DNA from: a virus
Direction: 5' to 3' (one strand)
IMG/VR virus record: IMGVR_UViG_3300031576_000019
Location: 1-64,000 of that record
DNA: 64,000 nucleotides
Shown one piece after another: positions 269 to 21,560 of this stretch. A program made the position numbers and the translations under genes. The notes below the pieces were generated by a model. The model had not been told where the DNA came from. It worked only from the letters and a program-made list of their open reading frames with translations, and did no database searches. Each line of letters begins with the position of its first letter. Within the stretch, counting starts at the first letter, position 1.

Positions 269-1444
269 TTACATTCCTATCATTGAACGCGCTCGGACAC
301 CTAATTGGAGCGGCGCAGAATAAAGCATAGATGGATCGGGGACTCCACTGTAGTAAAAGGCCACCCCAAACTCGCCAAAGAAGCGCGGGGTAGTTATAAA
401 CCAAGCAGTGTTCCGAGTGACGGTTGTAAGTGTTTTCTCGGTGCTCCAGGTAGCCCCACCATCGGTGGAATACTTATAGTACAGCTGAATAGCACTCTGC
501 CAAGTCTGGCTACCATCCGATAGACCGCCATAGATGACGTACCAGTAACCGCTCACCGTATCAAGCGCAACCCCGCAACCACCCTGATCATCAGTGCTGT
601 TCAAGACTACATTGGCGCTGGTTTCGGTAATGGTTGTGTCGGTGACAATCCAGCATCGCAGATTCGCATTGGCCGTATCTACTGCGCTCCAAGCCACAAT
701 AATGTTGCGCGAATTAGCAATATCCACACAAGCCGCTAAGTGAGGGAAGGAACTGGTCGCGGCTACGTCCGTCATGCTGGTAGCGATGGATGTTTCGGCC
801 CAGGTGTTGGCGCTATCATCGTAACGCTTGACCGACAACTCGTTGGCCGAGGCGTCCCAGAAAATCAACATCACATCGGCTGTGTCAGCATTCCAACCTG
901 GTAAAAGAAGATATTGGTCTTGCGTAGCGCCTTCGGATGGATCCGCAATGGTATCCGTCCACGTCGCGCCTACATCGGTAGAGGACCAGGCCCCATCTTC
1001 CGTGCCCGCATCAATTGAACCCGCCACGCGCAGATCGCCATTTCTCCCGCGTGTTATGGTGAGTGCTCCACCGTTAGCGACAGAGGCACCCGCAAAGACA
1101 GTCGTTTGGGTGGAGAGAGCATCAGATGAAGCGGTGTTGATATTGCGATAAAGAATGTCGGAGCCGACGCTCTCGGTGTAAGCGATATGGATCAGATTGC
1201 CCGAAACATTGCTCCAGCGGTCATACCAGACCGAAATAGCAGTAACCGTCCCAGTAAAAATCAAGGTGGGTACTGACCACGACAAGCCATTGTTGCTTGA
1301 CTTGATGAAGTAGACATCCTGATCCCGTTGGAGATAGACAAGGTACAGCACGCCCGAAAGCGTCTGTACAACATAGTTTGTTCCCCCGCCGGTAAAGATA
1401 GGCGAAGCAATCGTTCCGCCTGCTATAACTTCTGCGCGCGGCAT
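269..1444 (-). CDS. Asp-box (BNR) repeat beta-propeller protein, probably virion-associated
   Basis: Three Asp-box motifs SSNNGLSW, STDVGATW, STDGGATW; Thr/Ser/Ala-rich; late-gene context. Confidence 0.65.
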   Translation of the reverse strand: MPRAEVIAGGTIASPIFTGGGTNYVVQTLSGVLYLVYLQRDQDVYFIKSSNNGLSWSVPTLIFTGTVTAISVWYDRWSNVSGNLIHIAYTESVGSDILYRNINTASSDALSTQTTVFAGASVANGGALTITRGRNGDLRVAGSIDAGTEDGAWSSTDVGATWTDTIADPSEGATQDQYLLLPGWNADTADVMLIFWDASANELSVKRYDDSANTWAETSIATSMTDVAATSSFPHLAACVDIANSRNIIVAWSAVDTANANLRCWIVTDTTITETSANVVLNSTDDQGGCGVALDTVSGYWYVIYGGLSDGSQTWQSAIQLYYKYSTDGGATWSTEKTLTTVTRNTAWFITTPRFFGEFGVAFYYSGVPDPSMLYSAPLQLGVRARSMIGM

Positions 1445-1450
1445 AGTGTC

Positions 1451-2038
1451 TTAAGCCAGTGTCAGCGTCAAGGTCAACGCCCAAGTGCCACCCGATTTGG
1501 TGCCGAAACTTTCAACTTTACGATTCAACATCCGACCGCCCGATGAGCCATTGAAGATAGCCCACTCGGCCCAAGCGAAGTTGGCATCGCCCGACGCAAA
1601 GGAACTCTGGAATACAATTGAGGCCGCGCCGGAAGTCGTTGCGTCCGTGTGTTGTGGATAGGTGGCGTCCATTACCTTACGGAGCTTGTTGGCGGCGGCC
1701 TGCAGGTCGGTCTGCGTGGCGGCTGCCGCTGTGCTGGAATCACCGACGCCGATATAGGCGTTGCCGTTGTTAAAGTAGGTCAGGGTTTGAGCGGCTGTGC
1801 CAGTGCCGTTTCCAATCAGGCATTGCCAGAGACACGAGGCCCCGCCGTACATCAGCAGGTTGCCCTCGTCCTCAATGACTTCATACGGTTGGGGGGCAAG
1901 GCCTATCGCGACTTGTTCGGGTGTCCAGTCCCCCTCACGCTTTTCCAGCTTCCAATGGCAATGCCATTTCAACCCTTCCAAGCCAGGAAGTGCGACGGAC
2001 AGCGCAGAATCCTCGTTGAGTAAAGATTGGTCAATCAT
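1451..2038 (-). CDS. Putative tail/virion structural protein
   Basis: YIGVGDSSTAAAATQTDLQ...ANFAWAEWAIFN...MLNRKV pattern typical of tail fibre/baseplate-proximal proteins. Confidence 0.6.
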   Translation of the reverse strand: MIDQSLLNEDSALSVALPGLEGLKWHCHWKLEKREGDWTPEQVAIGLAPQPYEVIEDEGNLLMYGGASCLWQCLIGNGTGTAAQTLTYFNNGNAYIGVGDSSTAAAATQTDLQAAANKLRKVMDATYPQHTDATTSGAASIVFQSSFASGDANFAWAEWAIFNGSSGGRMLNRKVESFGTKSGGTWALTLTLTLA

Positions 2039-2048
2039 GGGTAGACTC

Positions 2049-3092
2049 CTAGGGGTTCACTTTTTTGACGCCCGACTTGTGTACCCAGAGCGCCTTGGGT
2101 ATTTCGATTAATAGGAAGTTATTCATCTCGTCAAGGACTCTTCCGGTCGAACCACCATAGCCCGCCGCAAATGGCTTGAATGAACTACCCGGCCCGAAGC
2201 GCATATTCCGAAAGAGCGGGAGAAGTTCTACTGTAGCGCCAATCCATTCTGAGGCGGGTGGCGGAGCGGCCAACTCAATCAGTCTACTTGCCACCTGGCC
2301 CTCGATATTGTGGTTGTTCCAACCCGCTCCGAGCGTGAAGACAGTGGCACCCAATACGTAGTTATCTTTGGCTAGTTCATTATCAAGCGGAAGCAGGATA
2401 CTGTTGAGATATTGTTCGGCATTACCGTTGAACAGTTCCTTCCAAGACTTGCCAGGAGGCACGCCAAACGGCACGCCGTCCGCGCCACACTCCGTGATAA
2501 GGACAGGCAAGTTTGGATAACCCATCGCAGAGAAGCGCAGGTTATCTTCCCGGTGGCGAAGCAAGAGATACGACCAGGTACTTTGATCGGGGCCAGCGTA
2601 ACTGTGTCGGCCCAGCATAGCCTTGTAGACAACTGCCGCTACGAGTGCTGGATGATATTCTGCCCAGAGCGGGTAGTCTGGATTGCCAACGGCCCAACCT
2701 CCAATAACAGCCGTGCGGTTAAACGTCACCCGTAGAATACGAGCAAACTCGGCCAGAAAAGTAGCGTACCAGCGCATCGCAGTAGTGTCGGTGATGACAC
2801 ACTCGTTTGGTCCCTCCCACAGTTTCACACTGGGATTGAGAAGGATAGGCGATGATAGATATTGATGAGTGTAGGTCGCCGCCATCGCAACCGGGTCAGT
2901 CCCCAGAAGTTGATTGGGATCAAAGGCATTCTCAAACACCCGCCCGACAATCAGTGGGTGATGCGGAAGCGTTTCCGCCTCGGTCGCAAAGGAGAAGTCA
3001 CCCACCATCTTGACAATGGGCGCTCCTCTACGAGTCCATTCTGAGCCAGCGGCGCTCGTTCCGAGAATGTGCGGACCAAGTTTTTTTAACAT
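2049..3092 (-). CDS. Glycoside-hydrolase-like protein with C-terminal SH3b-like domain
   Basis: WEGPNE, LGRHSY and LITECG motifs of TIM-barrel GHs; NMRFGPGSSF is SH3b-like; start reset to ATG 3092 behind GGAGAG. Confidence 0.55.
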   Translation of the reverse strand: MLKKLGPHILGTSAAGSEWTRRGAPIVKMVGDFSFATEAETLPHHPLIVGRVFENAFDPNQLLGTDPVAMAATYTHQYLSSPILLNPSVKLWEGPNECVITDTTAMRWYATFLAEFARILRVTFNRTAVIGGWAVGNPDYPLWAEYHPALVAAVVYKAMLGRHSYAGPDQSTWSYLLLRHREDNLRFSAMGYPNLPVLITECGADGVPFGVPPGKSWKELFNGNAEQYLNSILLPLDNELAKDNYVLGATVFTLGAGWNNHNIEGQVASRLIELAAPPPASEWIGATVELLPLFRNMRFGPGSSFKPFAAGYGGSTGRVLDEMNNFLLIEIPKALWVHKSGVKKVNP

Positions 3093-3102
3093 CAACACTC
3101 TC

Positions 3103-4278
3103 CTATGGACACGCGACGCGCTGACTTGCTTGTGTACGCAGTGTATCAATAGCGGAAGCGACATCCGGCTGAGTGAGGTACGGAATATCCCACTTCCACA
3201 TGACCAACCCACACGCACCCGGCTCGTTCAACATGAGACCTCCCCAGTTTTCCAGTTCCGCGCCAGTAACGTTTCCGGCCGCGCCCCCTCCGATCAGATT
3301 GATCGCAAAGTAAAGTTTTATCTGACGCGACTGGGCCGCCACGAGATTGGTCGAGATAAAATCTTGAATAGTTCCTTTCCGAATGGTGTACTGCGAGACG
3401 ACCACCGTAACATCCGGTATGGACGAGGCGGGCGCGGCCGCCAGCCAGGTCGCTTCGGTGTACGCGCCAAAAGGTAGCGTTGGCCAGTAAGCTAATGAGT
3501 ATTCAGCGGCAGCCTGCAGGGTGGCATAGGGTATCGGCCAGCCCGGACCATTGGAAGCATCCTGCGGCTCGTCGAATCCAATGTGCGCCAAGAGCGTGCC
3601 GTCTGAAACGTAGCTGGACAAATCTATTCCGGCGAATCGGTCAACGAGCGTCTTCCATTTTGCAAAATCCCACGCGCCACTCGAATCCTTTACCTGCGCT
3701 CCGGTCAGATTGAGCCAAATTCGTATTCCATTGGCTCGGGCGGCTTCCAGCATTGGAATCAAATCATCTGGCTTGCTGGCGAAGGCGCGTAGCGCGCCAG
3801 TGTAACCAGATGCTGGAAATTCTGAATTGGGCAGATGGATCACCCCAAACGGGATGCCCGTTTCGGAGGGAGGCGGCACCTGAGTCGGAATCAGAGTCGC
3901 GGTAGGTAATGGCGTGTTGGTGGGCGTGACCGTAGAGGTCGGCGTATCGGTAGATGTCACCGTTGCTGTCTCGGTCGGTATAAGCGTCATCGTCGCCGTC
4001 TCGGTCGGCGTATCGCTTGGCATAAGTGTGTCGGTGGGTGTGTGAGTCGCCGTTGCCGTTTCGGTCGGAGTATGCGTAATGGTCGGCGTCAATGTCTGAC
4101 AATCACTAATTCCCAGCGGTTCTGTCTGATATTGGCACAGTACAGCCACTGAGAGGGCATTTACAGACGCAATTTCAAGCGTGGCTGGCGCAGACGCAAG
4201 TTGCTGACCCGCCGACAGAGTGGCAATAGTGGTAAAGATTGCAAAGATAATAGACGTGCGTTTGGAGGGCAGTTTCAT
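3103..4278 (-). CDS. Secreted protein with Thr/Pro-rich linker and GH-like domain
   Basis: N-terminal hydrophobic signal, TPTETAT repeats, then globular domain with FDEP motif. Confidence 0.6.
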   Translation of the reverse strand: MKLPSKRTSIIFAIFTTIATLSAGQQLASAPATLEIASVNALSVAVLCQYQTEPLGISDCQTLTPTITHTPTETATATHTPTDTLMPSDTPTETATMTLIPTETATVTSTDTPTSTVTPTNTPLPTATLIPTQVPPPSETGIPFGVIHLPNSEFPASGYTGALRAFASKPDDLIPMLEAARANGIRIWLNLTGAQVKDSSGAWDFAKWKTLVDRFAGIDLSSYVSDGTLLAHIGFDEPQDASNGPGWPIPYATLQAAAEYSLAYWPTLPFGAYTEATWLAAAPASSIPDVTVVVSQYTIRKGTIQDFISTNLVAAQSRQIKLYFAINLIGGGAAGNVTGAELENWGGLMLNEPGACGLVMWKWDIPYLTQPDVASAIDTLRTQASQRVACP

Positions 4279-4286
4279 TTTGGCTC

Positions 4287-5840
4287 CTAGCGGGTCACCA
4301 CACGCCGCACATAGCGGTCGGCGATGGCGCGCGAGTAACGGCCCTGAGGGAAGGCGTTGGTTTCCGGGAGGTCTTCTTCAATATTTTCCTCGAAGCCCAT
4401 GTACCAAAGCAATCCCGCCAGGACAAAAAAGGTAGACACAATATCTTGGGGAATCTTTCCGTCTGGAAGCGCGTACTTGGCAAACTGGTGAACAATGCCC
4501 TCAATCGGAGGAAAGCGCACACGCACTTTTGCCATAATCAGTTTCAGCGACACCATGTAGACCGACTTCTTGACCCCACCCATGTCCATCGGCACAATCG
4601 GCAAATCTTCGGGAAACGACATCTCAGAGTGAACCTTCTGCCCAGCCGTTGAGTCATAGGCCCCCAGACTCGCCCGGTAATAGCCCATCCACTCCATAAA
4701 CTTGTTTACGAATGGACTGTACTTGCCTCCACCATCTCCCCACCAAAAAGCCCGCAGGACCGCCGGGCTGGGATAGTCCGTCACATCAAAAACAAGAACC
4801 ACTGGCGCATTCCGATAGGGTGGTTTACCTTGGCCCGGATCACCTACCACCACATATACTCGGCTTTGTTCGCGCGGAAGCGCCCACAGCACACAGCCAG
4901 CCTTCTGCATCTCATTGTAATGAAAGCCTGGCTCCTCCAACATCACCCCGTCTTTGAGAATCTCTGCCAATCCTTCGTCCAGGCATGGGCCAATCAATTG
5001 ATCCGAGAATTCCTTGCCGCCTCCAATGGGCCGCTTACCGTTCATGTGGATGGCAATCTTCTCCGGGTCATGGCCCATCCGCCGCTTGAACGATTCAATT
5101 TGTTCGGGCGTCAGATTCTTGTTTTGTTCAGTGCTTATTAGCCAACTGCGCTGAACAGGCGTCGCTGGAACACCCTGATCGTAGAGCCACCACAGTTCAG
5201 GGTTATCGGCAGAATTGGCGGTAATGGATAGTCTTCCCATTCTCGCTCGACCCTTTATCTTGCCGCGCACCCGTGTGCCCAGGTTGATAATGGCCGTGGA
5301 TAAGTCATCCACCGATTCGCCCTGGTCAATGTTGACCCAATCTCCGTCCCAAGTCAGGATTTTCTGGGCATTCTTGTCGCTCGACATAAACTCAAGCGTG
5401 CCCTTGTGGATTGCGCCACCCGGATACCGATACTGAATGGTCAGTGTTGGGTAGGGCTTAATGTTCACTTTCCACAGGAACCGATCTTTGTAGATGGTGT
5501 TCTCTAGCCAAGACAGCAAACTGTCGTACATCTGCTTCGATTGCCAAGCGATTGGCGCAACGTTCAGAAACTTGAAATCGGTTATTAATGTGCAGTCTGT
5601 CAGGGCCGAGAAGCCGACGGTAATTGTTTTCGAAGAACCCATACCACCCACGACAACTAAATCAAGTTGGGGGGCTTGATGAAACTCCAACTGCCAAGGT
5701 GGATCAATGTTGTCGTCAAACACCCATCCTTGGCTCTGCTGACGGGTCCGAACATAATAGCCGGTCAGATAGCGCGCGTCTTGTTTCCCAAGCTCAAAAA
5801 CGCGCTGGTCTTCATCGGTTAGGGTGTAAAGGTGTTTCAC
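4287..5840 (-). CDS. terL: Terminase large subunit
   Basis: Walker A VVVGGMGSSKT, Walker-B-like WVNIDQGE, C-terminal RNase-H-like nuclease (VVGDPG, AYDSTAG, QDIVS); 517 aa. Confidence 0.85.
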   Translation of the reverse strand: MKHLYTLTDEDQRVFELGKQDARYLTGYYVRTRQQSQGWVFDDNIDPPWQLEFHQAPQLDLVVVGGMGSSKTITVGFSALTDCTLITDFKFLNVAPIAWQSKQMYDSLLSWLENTIYKDRFLWKVNIKPYPTLTIQYRYPGGAIHKGTLEFMSSDKNAQKILTWDGDWVNIDQGESVDDLSTAIINLGTRVRGKIKGRARMGRLSITANSADNPELWWLYDQGVPATPVQRSWLISTEQNKNLTPEQIESFKRRMGHDPEKIAIHMNGKRPIGGGKEFSDQLIGPCLDEGLAEILKDGVMLEEPGFHYNEMQKAGCVLWALPREQSRVYVVVGDPGQGKPPYRNAPVVLVFDVTDYPSPAVLRAFWWGDGGGKYSPFVNKFMEWMGYYRASLGAYDSTAGQKVHSEMSFPEDLPIVPMDMGGVKKSVYMVSLKLIMAKVRVRFPPIEGIVHQFAKYALPDGKIPQDIVSTFFVLAGLLWYMGFEENIEEDLPETNAFPQGRYSRAIADRYVRRVVTR

Positions 5841-6157
5841 TGGGATGGATCAGGCAATGGCCACTGCCAACCGATTGATTCCAGACCATACCAATCATTC
5901 GCCCTGGCCTCGGATGTCCAATTCAGGCAATAGGACACTACCTCAGCCTCTGTGACACCGGATTGGACAGAAAAGAAAATACAAACGTCGTAGAGGCCGC
6001 GATAGTATTCCGTCTCCGCTGGCTGATCTATCGGCCCTTGGTTCCCGAGTGAGAAACCAAACGAACCCGCCAACAACAGCGCACAGGGCGAGAAAAACAA
6101 CGACAGCACCAGACACCCCTGAAGGAGCTCTCTCCAATATGAGAAATTGAATTTCAT
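5837..6157 (-). CDS. Hypothetical membrane protein
   Basis: N-terminal TM segment; stop overlaps terL start. Confidence 0.6.
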   Translation of the reverse strand: MKFNFSYWRELLQGCLVLSLFFSPCALLLAGSFGFSLGNQGPIDQPAETEYYRGLYDVCIFFSVQSGVTEAEVVSYCLNWTSEARANDWYGLESIGWQWPLPDPSQ

Positions 6158-6193
6158 GTTGGACGACCTTTGCCTCCAACCTGGAGGAGGGAA

Positions 6194-6481
6194 CTACTTC
6201 TGGAAAATTTCATCGCGCAAATCCCGGATGGCCCCTAAATAGGCGCGGACATGAACAGTTGGGTCTCCCAGCGAAAAGAGTTCACTTAATTCCAACGCGC
6301 GTGGCCCGCCCTCAAACCTGAATATAACTTTTCCGTTGGGCAGGTTGGGGCTGGGCACACGCCGTGAGGGAAGCCGGTGAACTCCCGAACACACCAGAAA
6401 AGCCGCCTGGTTGACGACATTGGTTTCAAAGGCAGGCACTTCTACGACTGTAATCTTGAGAGGAAGGGAATCTGTCATCAC
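6194..6481 (-). CDS. Hypothetical protein
   Basis: 95 aa ORF, ATGA-coupled to upstream gene. Confidence 0.6.
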   Translation of the reverse strand: MMTDSLPLKITVVEVPAFETNVVNQAAFLVCSGVHRLPSRRVPSPNLPNGKVIFRFEGGPRALELSELFSLGDPTVHVRAYLGAIRDLRDEIFQK

Positions 6482-6681
6482 TGAATTTTCCCGGTGCCGG
6501 ATGTGCCGGTCGCCTTTCCGACCCGAAACTGTTCTTGCAGAAAATAGACGACCAGATTGTTCGCCAGGGCATGGTAGATACTGACGTTGTAATCGCGCTC
6601 AAAGAAGGTCGGGTCTTGTTTCAACGCTGCTTCTTCAAACTCGGCCAAGTTTCTAACCAAGTATTCCGCCAGAGTTATCAT
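6478..6681 (-). CDS. Hypothetical protein
   Basis: 67 aa ORF, translationally coupled on both sides. Confidence 0.55.
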   Translation of the reverse strand: MITLAEYLVRNLAEFEEAALKQDPTFFERDYNVSIYHALANNLVVYFLQEQFRVGKATGTSGTGKIQ

Positions 6682-6917
6682 TCGGACACCTGCAGAGAGG
6701 ACGCAACAACAAACATTGCCAACTTCCCCAGAAGTTCCTCGGCCTGAGCCAGAGTGAAACCAAACCTGCTCTGGATAACACCTAGCATCCGTTGCACCTC
6801 CAGCAGGTGGACATATTTCAAGTTGTCCATTGCATCCTGATGGGATTTGTTGATTTCACGTTGAGTCAGTAATGGGAGCGCGACCAGAACCTCGCGCTCC
6901 CCGGTTATTGTCTGCAT
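6678..6917 (-). CDS. Hypothetical protein
   Basis: 79 aa ORF after AAGGA RBS and an operator-containing promoter. Confidence 0.6.
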   Translation of the reverse strand: MQTITGEREVLVALPLLTQREINKSHQDAMDNLKYVHLLEVQRMLGVIQSRFGFTLAQAEELLGKLAMFVVASSLQVSE

Positions 6918-7081
6918 TCATGCTGTCCTTTGTGAACTATTATTCACATAACGGGGCAGGAAGTCAATCCCTTTGTTGAAGGCCCCAACTGGGTAGACGG
7001 GCCAAATCCACAGTTGTTTCATCTTTCAAGGGACGGCCTCGCCGCGTGTTACTTGCCACTTCTTGAACTGCAGAAAGAGAT

Positions 7082-7243
7082 TCATTGCTTCAGCCACCAG
7101 TCTAGGGCATCCATCGCCCTCAACTCAGGAACGAGTGTGTTACCAAATTTGCCCTGCGTGGCAAAGGCGGTCACGCGCACAAAGCACCACCCGACTAGAT
7201 CACGAGGCAATAACCACGCCAACCATTTCCAAAATTTTTCCAT
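7082..7243 (-). CDS. Hypothetical small protein
   Basis: GGAGG RBS before ATG 7243 (MEKFWKWLAW...). Confidence 0.55.
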   Translation of the reverse strand: MEKFWKWLAWLLPRDLVGWCFVRVTAFATQGKFGNTLVPELRAMDALDWWLKQ

Positions 7244-7282
7244 GTTCAGTCCTCCTGCTCGACCATCCATTGTAATTTGCTC

Positions 7283-7483
7283 CTACAACTCAAAACGAAA
7301 GGTGCGGCATCGCTGACCCGTTGAGTCAAGCACCACCGCCTTCAACACATACATGGGGGCCGGATCCTCCGGCACCACCATCAAATCCGCCACTGCCTCG
7401 CTTTCCCCATACAACTTGCTCACAAAGGCCGGCACTACACCGTTGGCCTCTTTTAGATAAACCTCAAGTCCAATTTTGAGCAT
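7283..7483 (-). CDS. Hypothetical protein
   Basis: 66 aa, GGAG RBS. Confidence 0.55.
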   Translation of the reverse strand: MLKIGLEVYLKEANGVVPAFVSKLYGESEAVADLMVVPEDPAPMYVLKAVVLDSTGQRCRTFRFEL

Positions 7484-7496
7484 GTCTTATCTCCAG

Positions 7497-7850
7497 CTAC
7501 GGGCCAAAGGGATTGCCAATACCAATGTAATTCCGTGTCTCAATCCAACCACCCCCACTGCCGGGAAACAGCGACCGATATTCACCGACATTGTTTCCCC
7601 GACTGTACAGACGCACCCGATACCCAAGACTGGCCGTCTGAAAACGACATCGCTTGCGGAAATCCTCCACCGGCTTGAAGACCGCCACTCGCATTGCGCC
7701 CGTTGCTGGAATAATGACTGCACCCATCTCCTCCGGCGATACCACTACCACTATCACTCGTTCGCCCTCCGAAATGTCTACAAACAAATCTCCCGCCCGA
7801 AGGCTGTCCATTGCTTCAATCGTTTCGGTTTCTGATAGTTGGGGGAACAT
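7497..7850 (-). CDS. Hypothetical protein
   Basis: 117 aa, coupled to upstream ORF. Confidence 0.55.
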   Translation of the reverse strand: MFPQLSETETIEAMDSLRAGDLFVDISEGERVIVVVVSPEEMGAVIIPATGAMRVAVFKPVEDFRKRCRFQTASLGYRVRLYSRGNNVGEYRSLFPGSGGGWIETRNYIGIGNPFGP

Positions 7851-8107
7851 TATGCTGAAACCGGAACCGAAAGTTCCTCAACCTCGGCCTCTTTCCCGCC
7901 CAGTGCATCCCGCGCTATCTCATAGGCGTTCGCCACCGGAGCAGGATAGCCAGGATGGGGTATGCCCAGCTCATGCACAATTCGGTCAAGGGCGAGGCAG
8001 TACTGTCTCAATAGACGAATAGCCGTATCACCCGCACCCTCACTTCGGCTTGGTTCGCCCGGAATCTCCCACATGATGTAATTGGCTAACAGTTGAATTT
8101 GCTCCAT
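7850..8107 (-). CDS. Hypothetical protein
   Basis: 85 aa, AAGGAG RBS directly after the operator at 8120-8135. Confidence 0.65.
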   Translation of the reverse strand: MEQIQLLANYIMWEIPGEPSRSEGAGDTAIRLLRQYCLALDRIVHELGIPHPGYPAPVANAYEIARDALGGKEAEVEELSVPVSA

Positions 8108-8119
8108 GTATGTCTCCTT

Positions 8120-8147
8120 GTGAATAATTATTCACATTCTACCACAT
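8120..8147 (-). promoter_or_regulatory. Leftward promoter (TGGTAGAAT extended -10) followed by perfect operator GTGAATAATTATTCAC
   Basis: Minus strand reads tggTAGAATgtgaataattattcacaAGGAGacatacATG. Confidence 0.65.
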
Positions 8148-8264
8148 GCCAGAAACACTAAGACCCCGCGTAGGGGAAAGGTGACATAGTTATATATATG
8201 TATAGGTAGAAAGTGAACACCCCCTATACAAAGAATTATTTTTCCCCCATAGCGTTGTTCCTGT

Positions 8265-8323
8265 GGGGGGTGGGGGGGGGGTAGGGGGGGGGTGCTCCCC
8301 CCGGTGGTGGGGGTGGGGGTGGG
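8265..8323 (+). repeat. Poly-G tract cluster (G-quadruplex-capable)
   Basis: G6-T-G10-TA-G9 ... G5-T-G5-T-G3 at the point where gene orientation switches. Confidence 0.8.
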
Positions 8324-8382
8324 TACTCCGGGTCTGGTCTGCGCCCTAATGCGCCGCTTTTGTGCGACGTGCAGACCATCAA

Positions 8383-8452
8383 CGCTGTGCGCTTCAACAA
8401 GGCAGGGTGCCGCCCTCACGGGTGCTAATGGGTTCGACTCCCATCACAGCGG
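8383..8452 (+). ncRNA. tRNA-like element with collapsed anticodon arm
   Basis: Acceptor stem CGCTGTG/CACAGCG, T-arm ATGGG-TTCGACT-CCCAT; middle AGGGT-GCC-GCCCT has no 7-nt loop. Confidence 0.55.
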
Positions 8453-8790: not shown

Positions 8791-8970
8791 ATGGTACAAA
8801 TAATCGTCAAAGGCGGCACTGTCACCTATAGCACCACAGTAGAAGCACTTGCCTACCTCCTCTCAGCAGGGTATCGCACCGTGGGAACACCCGTTGTGCA
8901 TGGTAGCCCTGCCTACAAAGCCACGCTCAAGCGTGCTATCACACAGCGCAATGCCGACCTTCACCGCTAA
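8791..8970 (+). CDS. Small early hypothetical protein
   Basis: MVQIIVKGG... C-terminal part of ORF 8662..8970. Confidence 0.45.
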   Translation: MVQIIVKGGTVTYSTTVEALAYLLSAGYRTVGTPVVHGSPAYKATLKRAITQRNADLHR

Positions 8971-9537
8971 GTCACTACGGAGAATGCCCGTAGCGGGCCT
9001 GTACTTCACCATCCAGGCCCGTCGTTCATGGTGCAACCAACCTACTCCCTGTAGCCAAGTACACCCTGCCGTATGTCACCACATACACGGACAGGCCATG
9101 ACATTGTGTCATGTGCGCTGTGTAGAGCATCACCCCTGCCTGCTATATGGGCATCGGCGCTCTAGGCCACGTTGCATTGCCTTATATGCAACCCCTGCAC
9201 AATGTAGCTGTGCATCGCCAGGAGAATAGCACTCCTGCGTAAAGAATACTTCCTCTGACAGTCAGGTAGGCTGTCCCCTATGCACAGGTTGGGTTTCTGA
9301 AACTTGTGTGTTTCTTCACATCCTGCACCTTATATCATCCGTTAATAGATAACATAATGTCTGTCTTTCCATTGTGGTGACACATTGTACAGCCTATGCT
9401 ATCTCTCACCCTACAATGTGCTATGTATAGTAGCACATAGCACTACATAACTACGTATACCTATACCTACATGGTCTGGCGTCGTCAGCATGTAGGTATG
9501 TGGTATGTGTGGGCAGTAAGCCCCTACCCTGTGTGGT

Positions 9538-9599
9538 GGGGGTGCCGTTTGTGGGTATGTACTCACACTGAGGAGTCCTATTCAGGACGAAACAGCCCC
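9538..9599 (+). ncRNA. Hammerhead ribozyme (type III) candidate
   Basis: GTT triplet 9547-9549; stem I TGTGGGT-atgt-ACTCACA; core CTGAGGA 9568-9574; stem II GTCCT-attc-AGGAC; GAAAC 9589-9593; stem III imperfect. Confidence 0.75.
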
Positions 9600-9648
9600 T
9601 GGGCCAATCTAACCGATTGGCCCTTTTGATTCCTTGAAAGGAACTCAC

Positions 9649-9846
9649 ATGAACAACAACACTGGCACTTCTGGAACGCGCACTAACAACTTGTACATTG
9701 GCAGGTCCTACACCGCCCGCCAAGCTAATGCCGCTATCAATGCCCGCCGTGGGCAGATGACGGGTGGCGGGTGCTTTGTGGGGAGCATCCTGCTCTTGGC
9801 GCTTATTGTGACCATCTTGGTCGTCATTCTCCCCCATGTTCGCTAA
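9649..9846 (+). CDS. Small membrane protein
   Basis: AAAGGA RBS; C-terminal TM helix. Confidence 0.6.
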   Translation: MNNNTGTSGTRTNNLYIGRSYTARQANAAINARRGQMTGGGCFVGSILLLALIVTILVVILPHVR

Positions 9847-9860
9847 TAAAGGACAATCCC

Positions 9861-10067
9861 ATGAATCCCATCGTCAAAGAAGCCGCCGATATGTTGAAAA
9901 GCGGCACGCCGGCAGTTTTCGTTGAATTGGTTCTGAACGAGAAAGGTTTCAACACTGATGAAGCCGAAGGAATTGTATGGGCCGCCCAGACCCATAACAG
10001 CACACCCGACCAAGCCTTCTTCAATGGCATTGAAGCCGACTTCCGTTCCGCGCTCAACGCGCGCTAA
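9861..10067 (+). CDS. Small early hypothetical protein
   Basis: AAAGGA RBS; MNPIVKEAAD... Confidence 0.6.
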   Translation: MNPIVKEAADMLKSGTPAVFVELVLNEKGFNTDEAEGIVWAAQTHNSTPDQAFFNGIEADFRSALNAR

Positions 10068-10187
10068 CTCCGAAAATAGACAGCCACCTGCATTTAGGCG
10101 TTGTCTCATAGTTGTTTTACATCTGTAGTTCTATCTATCAACGCGCCGTAACCCTTGATAGGGATACACGGCGCGTTTTTGATTCTC

Positions 10188-10421
10188 ATGTTTGGATTCG
10201 GAAAACCAGTAACAGTAAGCGTTCACCACGGCTCGTTGGCTGAGGCTACGAGCAATGAGCGAAACGCCCATCTGTACGGCGCGGCGGTCTGCACCGCCGA
10301 AGAAGTTGCCCTGTACAACGAGTGGGAGAACATTCCGGTCACCGGTGACCCAGATGCCGGGATTGTGGCGAACGGTTGGGACCCGTCCGCTCTCTACAAC
10401 ATCAAGGTCAAGGGCGAATAG
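10188..10421 (+). CDS. Small early hypothetical protein
   Basis: ATG immediately after hairpin+TTTTGATTC. Confidence 0.5.
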   Translation: MFGFGKPVTVSVHHGSLAEATSNERNAHLYGAAVCTAEEVALYNEWENIPVTGDPDAGIVANGWDPSALYNIKVKGE

Positions 10422-10500
10422 CGCAGAAGACAGCCAGCAGGGGACTGGCTGTAATGCGGCAGGCCAATCATGTGTTGGCTTCTGGTTCTCAGCCCCAGAA
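10421..10500 (+). ncRNA. Twister ribozyme candidate (permuted, P1 closed, with P3)
   Basis: GCA-GA-AGAC, P1 AGCCAG/CTGGCT, G-TAA-TGC, GGC, P3 GCCAA/TTGGC, P4 TCTGG/CCAGA with loop TTCTCAGCC; T1 only 3 bp. Confidence 0.6.
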
Positions 10501-10514
10501 GAAAGGAAACATTC

Positions 10515-10634
10515 ATGTTAATTGTGAAATTGTTGCGGGCGAGTGGGCGACTCCTTGAAATCGCCAAGACTACAGATGAGGTTATAGTCCCCGAAATACG
10601 CATTGCGAAGTATGCGGGAGAATCAAACAGATAG
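10515..10634 (+). CDS. 39-aa peptide between the two twister candidates
   Basis: AAAGGA RBS; MLIVKLLRASGRLLEIAKTTDEVIVPEIRIAKYAGESNR. Confidence 0.5.
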   Translation: MLIVKLLRASGRLLEIAKTTDEVIVPEIRIAKYAGESNR

Positions 10635-10694
10635 ATGCCCGGATTCAGGTCGCGGGCTGGTGCGTGTGTCGTGGTTGTGAAGAAATCTTTTGGT

Positions 10695-10770
10695 TTCTGG
10701 AGGCAGAGTGACGCACGCTAAAAACGTGCGGTAATGCGCTGACTGGTCACAAGCCCAGTTACCTATGGAA
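10695..10770 (+). ncRNA. Twister ribozyme (permuted, type-P5-like)
   Basis: GCA-GA-GTGA, P1 CGCACG/CGTGCG, G-TAA-TGC, GCT, P4 GACTGG/CCAGTT with loop TCACAAGC; pseudoknots GTGA/TCAC and GC/GC. Confidence 0.8.
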
Positions 10771-10815
10771 CGTCCTGCAACCTACTTGGGATACGCAGGG
10801 CGCTTTTGATTCCAG

Positions 10816-11013
10816 ATGACTACTCCCGCGATTGTGCAGACCGCTAACTGGCTCCGTTCAGAAGCCATTGAATTGATTGAAGACAATGCTCACCGAGCGG
10901 TGGGTGGGCGTGATTTGAGCGAGCGCCTTGATGAGGCCCTTGAAAATGTGTGGGAAGCCAAGCGCCTTGCCAACACTGCTGATGTTCTGGAATTCGGCAC
11001 TCCCAACAACTAA
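10816..11013 (+). CDS. Small early hypothetical protein
   Basis: 65 aa, ATG right after hairpin+TTTTGATTCC. Confidence 0.55.
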   Translation: MTTPAIVQTANWLRSEAIELIEDNAHRAVGGRDLSERLDEALENVWEAKRLANTADVLEFGTPNN

Positions 11014-11038
11014 CTAGCCCCCGTGAAAGGAGGGCACA

Positions 11039-11350
11039 ATGTACATTCAAGTCAACTACGCGCCCTCCGAAGATGGGTACACCCTTCATACAGACTGGGT
11101 TGAGATGGGGGTGATTCGGTTCGTTGATGAGGGTGGGCGTAAGGTCTTGGTTTGCCATGGGGACGAGGAGGGATTAGTGACTGCTCCAGATAGGTACATG
11201 AATTGGGCTGACATTGTAATTTGTTGTCACCCAGCTCAAGTGCAAGAGCGTCAAGGGATTACAACTTTGGGCCGATGGGAAGGCGTGACTGAAATCCGGT
11301 TCTTCCCCAACTTCATTCAGGTATGCCAAGCGGGAGCATACACCATGTAA
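11039..11350 (+). CDS. Hypothetical protein
   Basis: 103 aa, strong AAAGGAGG RBS. Confidence 0.65.
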   Translation: MYIQVNYAPSEDGYTLHTDWVEMGVIRFVDEGGRKVLVCHGDEEGLVTAPDRYMNWADIVICCHPAQVQERQGITTLGRWEGVTEIRFFPNFIQVCQAGAYTM

Positions 11351-11426
11351 TTCCCTCTAAGTTGGAGGGGAAGTCTGGCCTTGCCAATCCCGGCAGGGCC
11401 TTTTTGATTCCATAAGGAGATACAAG

Positions 11427-11753
11427 ATGTTCAATCTTGAGGTAGCTGACCCGCAGACCGTGAAAGCGGCTGTGGGCCAGACTAAAAGCTTGGGGAGCGG
11501 GGCGCGGCTCTCCATAGTGGTTACTCCGGCTGGGGACCCGGAGTTAGCCTTTTACACCACTGATAACAAGTTGGTGGTGAAAGATTCGGTGGCCAATTTG
11601 GGGGCGGCCATGGGGTTGAAGGAAGCCGCCGACTTCCTGGCGCGCTATGCGCGCGCCAATGTGGACGTGCTGGCCATTAACGACTGGGCAACTCCAGTCG
11701 TTAATGATGCGGATGATGGCTACATCCGCGATGAAAACGGCAACATTATTTAG
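11427..11753 (+). CDS. Hypothetical protein
   Basis: 108 aa, AAGGAG RBS. Confidence 0.65.
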   Translation: MFNLEVADPQTVKAAVGQTKSLGSGARLSIVVTPAGDPELAFYTTDNKLVVKDSVANLGAAMGLKEAADFLARYARANVDVLAINDWATPVVNDADDGYIRDENGNII

Positions 11754-11841
11754 TGTAGATGATGTTTTGCGGATGGCCTTGACCCATTAGGTTTCGGGGT
11801 ATTTCAACATACGTTGAAACCGACTAGTCAAGCGAAAGACA

Positions 11842-12006
11842 ATGAATGTTTTGTTTTACGCCAGTTACGCATTTTGTTGTGAGTGGATCTGGTATCTGGA
11901 GGCTAAAGGCCGCATTGCGCTCTGCTTCTGGGATGACACCCAGAAGTGCTGGGCCATGACGGATAGCATCCGTCTGATCATGACGGATGAGGGACAAACT
12001 GAATAA
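11842..12006 (+). CDS. 54-aa protein, paralogue of 12543..12710
   Basis: MNVLFYASYAFCCEWIWYLEAKGRIALCFWDDTQKCWAMTDSIRLIMTDEGQTE; below the ORF-track cutoff. Confidence 0.6.
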   Translation: MNVLFYASYAFCCEWIWYLEAKGRIALCFWDDTQKCWAMTDSIRLIMTDEGQTE

Positions 12007-12096
12007 CACCGAGAGCACGCGCCTAACCCGCGCGTGGAAGGTGGCCAGCGTCCGCATATCTCAAAGTAGCGGAGCATTTCCCACCGGGAGATTGAC

Positions 12097-12414
12097 ATGA
12101 GACAGAGATTTTCCTTTCACGAATTAACCATCACAGCAAATGTAGAGTTTGACCTGCAAAATGGGGAGGTTGAGATTGTGGGCAGTGTTATTTGCGAAGA
12201 AACCAACCGACGCGCGAATTTTTCTTATGCGCGTCATGCCCACAATGTTACGGCGGCTGTGCGTCAAGTTGAGAAGTTAGCAGAGAAAGAAGCTAATAAA
12301 CTGGCCGATGAAGTCTATCGGTTCAAGCAACTTGCGGCCGCCAACCGCAATGCCAATCGCCGCATGGCCTATGACAACCCCGAGGCCGAAGCGGAGTCCT
12401 ACGGAAATAAATAG
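12097..12414 (+). CDS. Hypothetical protein
   Basis: 105 aa, GGGAG RBS, followed by terminator-like hairpin. Confidence 0.6.
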   Translation: MRQRFSFHELTITANVEFDLQNGEVEIVGSVICEETNRRANFSYARHAHNVTAAVRQVEKLAEKEANKLADEVYRFKQLAAANRNANRRMAYDNPEAEAESYGNK

Positions 12415-12542
12415 TCTCCAGACCATGAGCGCCTCAGATGACTGAGGCGCTTTTGTTTGTGGACTATCTCATTATGCCCAAGCGGTTAGGCTTTCAGGGT
12501 GTTTCAACACATGCTGAAATCGGCCTGCTAGGCGAAAACAAC

Positions 12543-20082: not shown

Positions 20083-20394
20083 GGGCGTGAATTTGGTCTC
20101 GACAGGATAGGCGGGAAGTGAATTGCAGGCGGAGAAGCGCAGACCTCCTAAAATCGGCGCAACCTTTCAAGTGCTGAAGCACCCATTGCGGTGGATTCCC
20201 TGTTTGGGTTCCGCCCCGGCCAACTGGCCGAAAGCCTGTTCGCAGGCGTCTCCGTGACCGCGTAAGTGTCCGGTGGTGGAAGTCGGTCATCCCCGAAACC
20301 GACACAGATGAAGACGCTGACGGCGTACCGTCTAAGCCTGTAGGAATTTGCTTCGCAAGTGTCTTGGACGCCGGATCGTTACCGGCCACGTCCA
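20083..20394 (+). ncRNA. ssrA: tmRNA
   Basis: 5' GGGCGTGAATTTGGTCTCGAC; 3' GGACGCCGG-ATCGTTA-CCGGCCACGTCCA; acceptor stem with G3-U; tag ORF 20173-20265 AEAPIAVDSLFGFRPGQLAESLFAGVSVTA*. Confidence 0.9.
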
Positions 20395-20752
20395 CAGTTA
20401 TCCCGGCCAGCGGTGCTTTCTCGTTAGACGTTAGCCACTGTCCTCCGTCCGGGATAGAAAGAGTAGTTGGGGTTATGGCGGGCCGCGTAGGTTTTGTCCA
20501 GCCGCCGCCCAGCCCGCCCCCATTATTACTAGACAAGTATCGGGTGGAATGGAAATAGACCTCCGTAATCGAGCACATCTGGCTGGCCCGATACTTGTCC
20601 GACTTTACGACAACCCTTTAGGGGCCTGGATTGCAGAGTAAACCGCCGATACACACCCATTGAGGTTGAGGCGCGATAGAAACTCTGAGGACGAAAGGCC
20701 CCACCAACTTCTTCTAGGATTGTGGAATACGTCAGGTTCTAAGAGGCCCAAG

Positions 20753-21046
20753 ATGAAAATCGGCGTGACGATTGATGAAGTCCGACAGCAAGGCACGCAG
20801 ACCGCTTATGTGCCCTCCCGTTTGCACGGTCATAACCTTGACTTGCAACACCCCGATGTGGAGTTTGGCTTTGTTACCAGTGTCAAGTCCATCGGCGCTT
20901 TCTGTCGCTTCTGGTCCAAATTTGTTCCTGACGAACTACGGACCACAGCAAACAGTGAGATGGCCCCATTTCACAGTCTGGCGCTCCATGAGGGTCATTC
21001 GGAAGAGGCAGTGGCCAAACAGTTGAAGAAAATTATGGGCGGTTAG
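20753..21046 (+). CDS. Phage hypothetical protein
   Basis: AYVP..HPDVEFGFVTSV..FCRFWSK..LRTTANSE; stop lies within the tRNA 5' end. Confidence 0.6.
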   Translation: MKIGVTIDEVRQQGTQTAYVPSRLHGHNLDLQHPDVEFGFVTSVKSIGAFCRFWSKFVPDELRTTANSEMAPFHSLALHEGHSEEAVAKQLKKIMGG

Positions 21047-21109
21047 TTCAGTTGGGAGAACGTCTGCGCTGCAAGCAGAATGTCGTGGGTTCGAGTCCCA
21101 CATCGTCCA
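21037..21109 (+). tRNA. tRNA-Ala (TGC)
   Basis: Cloverleaf: GGGCGGT/ATCGTCC with G3-U70; anticodon arm TCTGC-GCTGCAA-GCAGA; T-arm GTGGG-TTCGAGT-CCCAC; CCA not encoded. Confidence 0.85.
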
Positions 21110-21130
21110 CATGCTTACGAAGGTAGCAAA

Positions 21131-21560
21131 CTGTGTGCATTCATCCTGGAAGGACAGGACTGGCCAGATAAGTACAAGTATGCCTCGGTGGAGGTAATTG
21201 CCAGAGAGAATGATTCCCACCAATGCGGTGGGCCTCAGGAGATCAGCCGGAATCAAGCCCGGCCAATGCACACGACAGGTGCGGTCAAGAGTAAGACCGT
21301 AAATCGGCAGGCGCTAAACTGCCAGCCTGTCTTGACAGAGACAACCGCTCAAGCGTCCGGTATTAGGCGTTGGACGGGCCGACGCAGGCCATTTCATGTA
21401 AGCCCTGTCTCTGTCCTCCGAAATGCCAAAGGGCTCGTTTGCCCGGAGGCCTGGGATGTGGTGGGCCGCTTATAAATGGCCTAGCTGGACGAGGGTAATT
21501 GCCCCTGACAGTGAATAACTAGCCACCCTCACCCGCAACTGTGTGGCATCCCAGACAAAC
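21131..21560 (+). ncRNA. Candidate large structured ncRNA downstream of tRNA-Ala
   Basis: Long-range pairs GTGTGCATT/AATGCACAC and CTGGGATG/CATCCCAG plus many short hairpins; no convincing ORF. Confidence 0.55.

Follow-up and report, generated by a model that had tools for sequence, protein, structure and literature searches.

A type III hammerhead candidate and two type-P5 twisters in a small-gene block of an uncultured tailed phage: a probable case of self-processing of an early message

The window, i.e., the whole 64-kb stretch of DNA analyzed here, is the first part of a tailed-phage genome that is complete, spans 90.8 kb and has direct terminal repeats. The phage is uncultured, and its record is a complete virus genome. 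In the region 8791-12414, there are ten small ORFs on the + strand, and for each of them its own frame scores best with the phage codon usage. The small ORFs match no Pfam or PHROG family, and the label "early" for this block is taken from the gene layout alone. At the start of this rightward block of small orphan genes, three ribozyme motifs are located within 1.2 kb: a hammerhead candidate and two twisters, called here A and B (Table 1). The motifs are real, lie on the sense (+) strand and are outside the coding frames of the co-oriented small ORFs; the gaps that carry them have no coding score with the phage codon usage. The first-pass annotation had placed all three motifs on the sense strand between tiny ORFs. 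The strand holds for all of them, and the twisters are indeed outside coding frames, but the hammerhead is not between ORFs. It occupies the 3' part of a non-coding stretch that spans 678 nt (8971-9648), 100 nt ahead of the first ORF of the block. The leader at 9250-9549 contains many short inverted repeats. A scan for sigma-70-like promoters gave fewer sites than in shuffled sequences and no clear promoter ahead of the hammerhead. Other ribozyme classes were searched for in the window and in the 27 kb that complete the genome, and none scored at E ≤ 1.

Table 1. Positions of the ribozyme motifs, hairpin-U-tract elements, leader and ORFs, with the support or placement of each.
Feature	Positions	Strand	Support and placement
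Structured non-coding leader	9250-9549	+	Fold z = -3.6; 0 of 200 shuffles as stable
Type III hammerhead candidate	9538-9600	+	Hammerhead_3, 26.8 bits; descriptor match; core consensus
Element e1	9601-9633	+	9-bp GC hairpin and UUUUGAUUCC; ends 15 nt ahead of ORF start 9649
Small ORF	9649-9846	+	On the 903-nt piece between the predicted hammerhead and twister A cuts; codon score
Small ORF	9861-10067	+	On the same 903-nt piece; codon score
Element e2	10142-10187	+	Branched hairpin (loop AACC..GGGAUAC) and UUUUUGAUUCUC; abuts ORF start 10188
Small ORF	10188-10421	+	On the same 903-nt piece; codon score
Twister A, P5-type with P3	10422-10498	+	Rfam sub-threshold; independent model; descriptor; fold
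39-codon ORF with SD	10515-10634	+	On the 280-nt piece 10453-10732 between the predicted twister cuts; best codon-score frame
Twister B, P5-type without P3	10702-10758	+	Rfam Twister-P5 above gathering score; descriptor; fold
Element e3	10771-10813	+	Branched hairpin of e2 type and UUUUGAUUCC; 12 nt past twister B, 2 nt before ORF start 10816
Element e4	11377-11411	+	GC hairpin and UUUUUGAUUCC; ends 15 nt ahead of ORF start 11427

In the hammerhead, stem III is formed by 9538-9548 (5' strand) and 9592-9600 (3' strand), stem I by 9550-9555/9562-9567 (6 bp), and stem II by GUCC 9575-78 and GGAC 9585-88 (4 bp). The core consists of CUGAGGA 9568-9574 and GAA 9589-91, which is part of GAAAC 9589-93, together with A9592, U9548 and U9549. 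The GUU site occupies 9547-49, and the cut is predicted between U9549 and U9550. The hammerhead core, the GUU site and the position of the predicted cut (after 9549) given by the first-pass annotation are borne out by the sequence. As a criterion for the core, we used the consensus of Perreault et al. 2011 (PMC3088659). All 13 positions (C3, U4, G5, A6, N7, G8, A9, G12, A13, A14, A15.1, U16.1 and H17) are without mutation; the consensus permits N7 = G and H17 = U, both of them rare. Watson-Crick pairs adjoin the core in all stems (U9550-A9567, G9575-C9588 and A9592-U9548). Our type III hammerhead descriptor, written after the sites had been seen but with elements drawn from the published consensus, has its sole match in the genome at 9540-9600 and no match in 300 shuffles. 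With the Rfam model Hammerhead_3 (RF00008), the candidate scores 26.8 bits against a gathering score of 48.5, i.e., it is below the threshold by 22 bits; its single-family E-value over the whole phage genome is 6.2e-5. Like other type III hammerheads, it has a complete core, closed stems I and II and an open stem III. It differs from them by G7, GUU, the flaws of stem III and the sub-threshold score. Among 126 phage hammerhead cores sharing this stem II, a single one has G7, and GUU occurs in none of the 19 type III fits among phage hammerheads, most of those sampled being other than type III. Stem III has an A.C mismatch at the third pair and a bulged U, so that 6 of 8 positions are paired. 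Because of three rare features, namely G7, GUU and an imperfect stem III, the hammerhead is the weakest of the three motifs. In addition, an upstream hairpin (9520-9543) competes for the distal part of stem III, and the ribozyme fold is 6 kcal/mol above the minimum-energy fold.

Both twisters have the same permutation, in the order P2 5' strand, G-A-T1, closed P1, N-AA, P2 3' strand, GC and P4/L4. They share P1, P2, P4, T1, T2 and the ends at P5 with the type-P5 twister (RF02684, clan CL00120; PMC5408937), and the N-A cut site of this class with A1, A2 and the general-base G is present in both. Covariance models leave pseudoknots unscored, and our own descriptors include them. With a P5-twister descriptor in which both pseudoknots are mandatory, the sole matches in the genome are 10423-10497 and 10703-10757, and 200 dinucleotide shuffles had none; this descriptor, like the hammerhead one, was written after the sites had been seen, with elements from the published consensus. 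A third twister-like match at 21201-21263 (14 bits) has neither the UAA site nor A1 and was rejected. The first-pass annotation had proposed Rfam covariance models as a check on all three motifs. Twister B passes the Twister-P5 gathering score (49.5 bits against 37.6; single-family E = 9.1e-11 over the whole genome), but twister A (26.3 bits; E = 8.0e-5 with the same scope) and the hammerhead do not.

In twister B, P2 is formed by 10703-05/10735-37 (3 bp), P1 by 10712-17/10725-30, and P4 by 10743-46/10755-58. The predicted cut is between U10732 and A10733, followed by A10734; the general base is G10706, and A10752 is A6 of L4. T1 pairs A-GUG 10707-10 with CAC-A 10748-51 and keeps the A.A, and T2 pairs GC 10738-39 with GC 10753-54. 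When compared to the type-P5 twister, twister B has the T1 most common in phages (GUG/CAC), but its P2 is only 3 bp long. The minimum-energy fold of the isolated sequence recovers P1, P2 and P4. In context, the upstream sequence at 10662-10672 can pair with 10708-10718 in the 5' half of the ribozyme, and there the minimum-energy fold is more stable than the ribozyme fold by 9.5 kcal/mol, with pseudoknots uncounted. Upstream flank helices of the ribozymes were indistinguishable from chance when duplex energy was compared with shuffles, although this test is uninformative.

In twister A, P2 is formed by 10422-25/10455-58 (4 bp), P1 by 10431-37/10445-51, and P4 by 10482-85/10495-98. An optional P3 hairpin of 5 bp is formed by 10463-67/10475-79. 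The cut is predicted between U10452 and A10453, followed by A10454, with G10426 as the general base and A10491 as A6 of L4. T1 pairs A-AGA 10427-30 with UCU-C 10487-90, where A.C replaces A.A, and T2 (GC 10459-60 with GC 10492-93) is perfect. A1, A2, the general-base G and A6 of L4 are kept, and the only core substitution is the one in T1; both pseudoknots differ from the consensus by double changes that preserve complementarity. Twister A differs from the type-P5 twister by AGA/UCU in T1, the A.C pair, the 5-bp P3, an L4 of 9 nt (one extra nucleotide) and the low score. The Rfam model misaligns it, setting P4 on the P3 hairpin. An independent model built from P3-bearing twisters of other phages aligned twister A over its full length (22.4 bits, E ~2e-3). 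The minimum-energy fold of the isolated sequence recovers P1-P4. Its T1 variant was not found elsewhere in IMG/VR. An A-to-C change in T1 is reported to be tolerated in twisters, as are P3 stems, and 94% of natural candidates cleaved (PMC11662667). The two same-permutation twisters of the first-pass annotation, with predicted cuts at 10452/10453 and 10732/10733, are confirmed by the sequence, and the pairings said to be kept in different letters (GUGA/UCAC in B, AGA/UCU in A, different P1 stems) are complementary.

P5 twisters are common in IMG/VR phages: a strict pattern matched 119 loci or more, some of them in arrays with as many as 7 members. T1 shows covariation in this set (GUG/CAC 72, GGG/CCC 23, GAG/CUC 3). 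The medians for 108 other phage twisters are 5 nt past a stop codon and 25 nt before a start codon. Twister A begins 0 nt after a stop codon and ends 16 nt ahead of an SD-led start, and this is the canonical phage layout between a stop and an SD-led start.

Four conserved hairpin-UUUUGAUUC elements, terminator-like and in the sense orientation, lie within 1.8 kb, ahead of every second start codon. Elements e2 and e3 are homologous and differ by three compensatory stem changes; the starts that follow them, at 10188 and 10816, are SD-less. Four such elements in the sense orientation make a single long transcript questionable. Two of the three ribozymes precede an element of this kind, in contrast to other phage twisters, beside which it was found in 1 of 114 cases. 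Together with the ribozymes, the elements could form a hitherto undescribed signal for the start of a cassette, in which a self-cut is followed by the hairpin and UUUUGAUUC 0-15 nt before the start of every second gene; we consider this hardly probable. If true, it would give hairpin-capped messages with 5'-OH ends and very short or SD-less leaders. The hairpin-U-tract would then be a phage-specific signal for stability, translation or transcription restart and not a plain terminator.

The reading of the first-pass annotation, self-contained processing of a polycistronic early mRNA, is supported in part: judging by the sequence, the three motifs probably cut the early message into pieces, and their geometry fits transcript processing. 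With a probability of about 60%, the hammerhead and the two twisters process the early RNA of the phage by self-cleavage into separate message units. Each motif would fold during transcription and then cut itself by internal transesterification, at 9549/9550, 10452/10453 and 10732/10733. After each cut, the upstream piece would end in a 2',3'-cyclic phosphate and the downstream piece would begin with a 5'-OH. Owing to the permutations, ribozyme helices would continue to cap the new ends. The P1 hairpin of a twister would cap the 3' end of the upstream piece, and P3/P4 or the hammerhead stems I and II would cap the downstream 5' end just before the next ribosome-binding site. The predicted products are a leader RNA (9250-9549, detached by the hammerhead cut), a 903-nt piece with three genes, a 280-nt piece with one gene if both twisters cut, and the remainder. 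In this way, the stability and translation of the pieces would be uncoupled, and a host nuclease would be unneeded. While the motifs, their statistics and their placement relative to the ORFs, which is general in other phages, are shown here, we infer that the RNA is cut in vivo, that the region is co-transcribed and that expression is affected.

The first-pass annotation drew an analogy with phage T7, in which the early mRNA is cut between cistrons by the host protein RNase III, which leaves 5'-phosphate and 3'-OH ends. Intercistronic cuts in an early polycistronic RNA and hairpins at the new ends, here predicted, would be common to both systems. In contrast to T7, the RNA itself would cut here, leaving a 5'-OH and a 2',3'-cyclic phosphate. 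Perreault et al. 2011 proposed that ribozymes flanking prophage genes process long phage transcripts (PMC3088659), and Weinberg et al. 2019 restated transcript processing by ribozymes as unproven (PMC6765202). Several sense-strand ribozymes of mixed classes flanking small phage ORFs are shared with the arrangement described there (PMC3088659, PMC6765202). In our case, the set consists of a type III hammerhead candidate and two P5 twisters. A parallel is found in halovirus HF2. There, too, a hammerhead is part of the leader that precedes the first early gene, and the mapped 5' end of an early transcript is ≤3 nt from the hammerhead site (PMC3088659). Since descriptions of such a layout in phages date back to 2011, the locus is a clean new example and not a new phenomenon. 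According to reviews, the function of arrays of self-cleaving ribozymes in phages is largely speculative. The locus leaves the present understanding unchanged. It is well suited to experiments on cleavage and mRNA stability, and the phage is a compact test case, in which 1.2 kb hold three ribozymes from two classes and the predicted products are 903 and 280 nt long. The AU-rich pseudoknot of twister A and the two rare core variants of the hammerhead can be useful for mapping sequence tolerance.

It is possible, though rather unlikely, that only twister B works and makes a single cut, the hammerhead and twister A being decaying relics or chance look-alikes. Their Rfam scores, ~22 and ~11 bits under gathering, point in this direction. 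So do the rare G7 and GUU, the imperfect stem III and the competing upstream hairpin of the hammerhead, as well as the AU-rich T1, A.C pair, extra L4 nucleotide and T1 variant, found nowhere else in IMG/VR, of twister A. However, the catalytic and core positions are all intact in both motifs, and in twister A both pseudoknots keep their complementarity by means of double changes. The descriptors matched no shuffled sequence. Natural twisters broadly tolerate such imperfections (PMC11662667), and twister A sits at the canonical stop/SD position.

The ribozymes might also serve to make defined non-coding RNAs and not mRNA segments, either together with the hairpin-UUUUGAUUC elements acting as terminators or by releasing the structured leader as the main hammerhead product. 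Cuts at 9550 or 10733, with transcription ending at ~9627 or ~10807, would yield small structured RNAs of similar sizes, ~78 and ~75 nt. A terminator-like element does follow the hammerhead and twister B at 2-13 nt, and the 300 nt ahead of the hammerhead cut are unusually structured (z = -3.6). We nevertheless regard this explanation as improbable: the elements end 0-15 nt before a downstream start codon and are not tied to an upstream stop, a ribozyme precedes only two of the four, twister A has no element, and such elements hardly ever accompany the twisters of other phages. Far less probable still is ligation of the 280-nt inter-twister piece into a circular mRNA for a 39-residue peptide. 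A 5'-OH and a 2',3'-cyclic phosphate are the substrate ends of RtcB-type ligases, and the two half-twisters have compatible P2 strands (GCA and UGC). But the T1 strands of the two halves are mismatched (GUG vs UCU), which disfavours a hybrid twister able to run the reaction backwards. The phage genome has no gene for RtcB or an RNA ligase. For tandem hammerheads, circular or spliced products were sought and none were found (PMC3088659).

We also assessed the region in relatives of the phage. The alignment of TerL included 51 distant relatives, and closer TerL homologues reach 59% identity. None of the 51 has the small ORFs or the hairpin element of this region. Five complete relatives have no twister and no type III hammerhead. 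A neighbouring sigma-like gene has no homologue except itself, locus searches in IMG/VR with four single proteins found nothing, and a nucleotide search of GenBank phages gave no match. Since no close relatives were found, there is no orthologous covariation for the three ribozyme copies. Two relatives defined by TerL carry three twisters or two pistols at the same place in the genome, on the opposite strand and 2-3 kb ahead of TerL. The presence of pistols or twisters at the same position is in line with the idea that selection acts on the position and on the cutting, and not on the ribozyme class.

The first-pass annotation had placed three self-cleaving ribozyme motifs on the plus strand, a hammerhead and two twisters (A and B). 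Rfam scans located all three at those positions, and the observation of the motifs is confirmed. Twister B is the sole ribozyme found in the window at curated thresholds, a Twister-P5 match of 49.5 bits against a gathering score of 37.6. Using a sensitive scan of 9000-11500, we also found twister A (Twister-P5, 10422-10478 (+), 26.3 bits) and the hammerhead (Hammerhead_3, 9542-9598 (+), 26.8 bits against a gathering score of 48.5). The covariance check holds above threshold for twister B; the other two are matched below it. In single-family searches of the whole phage genome, the E-values were 9.1e-11 for twister B, 8.0e-5 for twister A and 6.2e-5 for the hammerhead. Across the window and the other 27 kb of the genome, no further ribozyme family reached E <= 1.

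Coordinates of the ribozyme candidates and other features
Feature	Position	Strand	Remarks
Putative large terminase	4287-5840	-	517 residues, Walker A motif GGFGSGKT, 65 homologues
Hammerhead candidate	9538-9600	+	type III, predicted cut after U9549
Hairpin/U-tract element	9601-9633	+
Hairpin/U-tract element	10142-10187	+
Twister A	10422-10498	+	P5-type with P3
Twister B	10702-10758	+	P5-type without P3, extent of the Rfam match, predicted cut U10732|A10733
Hairpin/U-tract element	10771-10813	+
Hairpin/U-tract element	11377-11411	+
tmRNA	20083-20397	+	77.6 bits
tRNA-Ala (UGC)	21037-21110	+

Both twisters have the common permutation ascribed to them, which matches the P5-type layout described in PMC5408937: the 5' strand of P2, the general-base G, an A and three T1 nucleotides, a closed P1 hairpin, N|AA, the 3' strand of P2, the GC of T2, and then P4 with its L4 loop. 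Twister B has T1 GUG/CAC with an A.A pair, T2 GC/GC and a P2 of 3 bp. In the Rfam alignment of twister A, P4 is misplaced onto the P3 hairpin (GCCAA 10463-67 with UUGGC 10475-79); the actual P4/L4, CUGG-UUCUCAGCC-CCAG, lies at 10482-10498. With this correction, P2 of twister A is a perfect helix of 4 bp, P1 has 7 bp, T2 is GC/GC and T1 is AGA/UCU. Compared with the consensus GgG/CcC, two G-C pairs of this T1 have become A-U through double changes, with pairing preserved. The claim that T1 differs in sequence between the two twisters and remains paired is borne out. Its single change at a conserved position turns the T1 A.A pair into A.C. McKinley et al. 2024 (PMC11662667) found no significant effect of an A-to-C change in this pair; they also report tolerance of P3 stems and cleavage by 94% of natural twister candidates.

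For a covariance model of our own we took six P5 twisters with a P3 stem, all from unrelated IMG/VR phages. This model aligned twister A over its full length with P3 and P4 (22.4 bits, rough E 2e-3 for the window) and gave 39.3 bits for twister B. Unconstrained minimum-energy folds of the isolated sequences recovered all nested helices of both. Covariance models ignore pseudoknots, and our descriptor demands both of them; it matched exactly twisters A and B on both genome strands and nothing in 200 dinucleotide-shuffled genomes, which is a check on chance rather than blind discovery, since it was written with the sites already known. Activity is predicted with high confidence for twister B and is likely for twister A. 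The 5' half of twister B (10703-10718) can also pair with 10659-10678 (+) through 11 bp, including 3 G-U pairs. In its sequence context, the ribozyme fold is 9.5 kcal/mol less favourable than this upstream-paired one, which may slow the predicted cleavage; non-randomness of the helix could not be demonstrated. A weak twister-like match at 21201-21263 (+), 90 nt past tRNA-Ala, has a good P4/L4 (CGG-AAUCAAGC-CCG); it was rejected as lacking the UAA cut site and A1, and is probably a chance match or a dead remnant.

The hammerhead contains all 13 positions of the Perreault consensus core, with Watson-Crick pairs adjoining it, a 6-bp stem I, a 4-bp stem II and a GUU cleavage triplet. It is the sole match of a type III descriptor, which found none in 300 shuffles. 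Nevertheless, it is the weakest of the three motifs, because an A.C mismatch and a bulge interrupt stem III, a hairpin farther upstream (9520-9543) competes for the distal part of this stem, and two core features are rare or absent in the phage hammerheads compared. Position 7 is G in only 1 of 126 non-redundant phage hammerhead cores sharing its stem II, and the 19 of these that fit type III carry GUC (18) or GUA (1), never GUU. The ribozyme fold lies about 6 kcal/mol above the minimum-energy fold. We consider its activity somewhat better than an even bet.

The 90,773-bp IMG/VR record, of which the window covers bases 1-64000, has direct terminal repeats and is estimated to be 100% complete. 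Leftward genes occupy 269-8120. One of them encodes a Walker A protein without a match in Pfam or PHROG, which is most likely the large terminase; several homologues lie on phage contigs of about 80-90 kb. Small orphan ORFs open a long rightward arm at about 8.8 kb; after them come an RNase H-like protein, a sigma-like protein, the tmRNA, tRNA-Ala, and helicase and methylase genes. The far leftward arm holds the lysis, tail and portal genes and a large serine recombinase/integrase. The three candidates sit where the rightward arm begins, and from the gene layout we infer that this arm is early. Just before it, a long G-rich tract (8262-8325 (+)) is followed by 8330-8450, which ends in a T-arm-like GGTTCGACTCCC. 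ARAGORN called no tRNA at 8262-8450, and the region could be a tRNA-fragment attachment site.

Using a codon model trained on the long genes of the phage, we found that ten small plus-strand ORFs (8791-12414) score best in their own frame, and the ribozyme-holding gaps give no coding signal. None of the ten matched a Pfam or PHROG family. Both twisters lie in gaps between tiny ORFs, as annotated: twister A directly abuts the stop codon at 10419-10421, and its 3' end lies 16 nt ahead of an SD-led start at 10515; twister B is 67 nt past a stop and 57 nt ahead of the next start. The hammerhead instead sits towards the end of 678 nt of non-coding sequence, 100 nt ahead of the start at 9649. Cleavage at all three sites would split the RNA into a leader, a 903-nt piece carrying three ORFs, a 280-nt piece carrying a single ORF of 39 codons, and the remainder. 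Ribozyme helices would be present at each new end: P1 on the 3' ends, P3/P4 or stems I and II on the 5' ends.

P5 twisters are common in IMG/VR phages. A strict P5-twister pattern occurs in at least 119 IMG/VR stretches, and our model found 132 copies in 100 of those listed. Among the matches listed, the largest array confirmed by Rfam packs seven twisters into 5.5 kb, 3 of 15 loci also have type II hammerheads, and T1 covaries across the other phage twisters. In the same matches, 82% of 108 non-redundant twister copies are preceded by a stop codon no more than 120 nt away (median 5 nt), and for 85% an ORF begins no more than 80 nt downstream (median 25 nt). Perreault et al. 2011 (PMC3088659) described clustered hammerheads flanking genes in prophages, showed that native polycistronic RNAs cleave, and proposed processing into gene-length messages; a 2019 review (PMC6765202) still calls the function elusive. 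The annotation's reading, processing of a polycistronic early mRNA without host factors, is therefore the standard, still unproven hypothesis. For this phage, such processing is plausible.

It had also been suggested that the 280-nt piece between the twisters circularises. This idea is unsupported: the two half-twisters have T1 strands that do not fit each other, the phage encodes neither RtcB nor an RNA ligase, and circles sought with tandem hammerheads were not found (PMC3088659). The single long transcript is itself questioned by four plus-strand elements of the form GC hairpin, UUUU(U), GAUUC(C/U), which resemble intrinsic terminators. They hold the only plus-strand copies of TTTTGATTC in the genome, and two are homologous to each other, sharing the loop AACC..GGGAUAC and showing three compensatory changes in the stem. 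Their position is tied to the downstream start: they end 0-15 nt ahead of the start codon of every second small ORF, and two such starts have no SD. They could be terminators, translation signals or restart signals. A comparable downstream hairpin occurs at 1 of 114 other phage twisters, versus 2.6% of random segments.

The 300 nt detachable by the hammerhead (9250-9549) have an RNA fold z of -3.6, and none of 200 shuffles was as stable. Non-coding 8971-9549 (+) holds 16 short inverted repeats; it could be a structured leader RNA releasable by the hammerhead, or DNA operator palindromes of a divergent control region. A duplicated leader of about 65 nt (11776-11841 and 12476-12542 (+)) precedes two small ORFs and matched no Rfam family. 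It can form either of two helices that compete for the strand G(U/C)UGAAA; the differences between the copies include compensatory changes, and the leader looks switch-like.

The neighbouring genes of the ribozyme block are orphans, and the terminase has many homologues. Its alignment gave 51 IMG/VR loci at 28-43% identity. We searched 16 of these records whole for Twister-P5 and Hammerhead_3, and 14 of the loci for all Rfam families up to 10 kb each side of the terminase gene where the contig allowed. In five complete relatives, the whole-record search gave no hit to Twister-P5 or Hammerhead_3, and no Rfam ribozyme family exceeded its threshold at distances of up to 10 kb from that gene. Locus L146 (record G015) carries three Twister-P5 copies (contig positions 37679-38916), and two pistol ribozymes (L175:7616-8128 (-)) are present in the record of locus L175, which is classed as a provirus. 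Both sets lie on the strand opposite the terminase gene and 2-3 kb upstream of it, the same spot as here. Thus, ribozymes are sporadic in this lineage and, where present, occupy the same spot with different classes. Another distant relative has a group I intron (L140:14847-15124 (+), 76 bits) about 3.5 kb downstream of its terminase gene.
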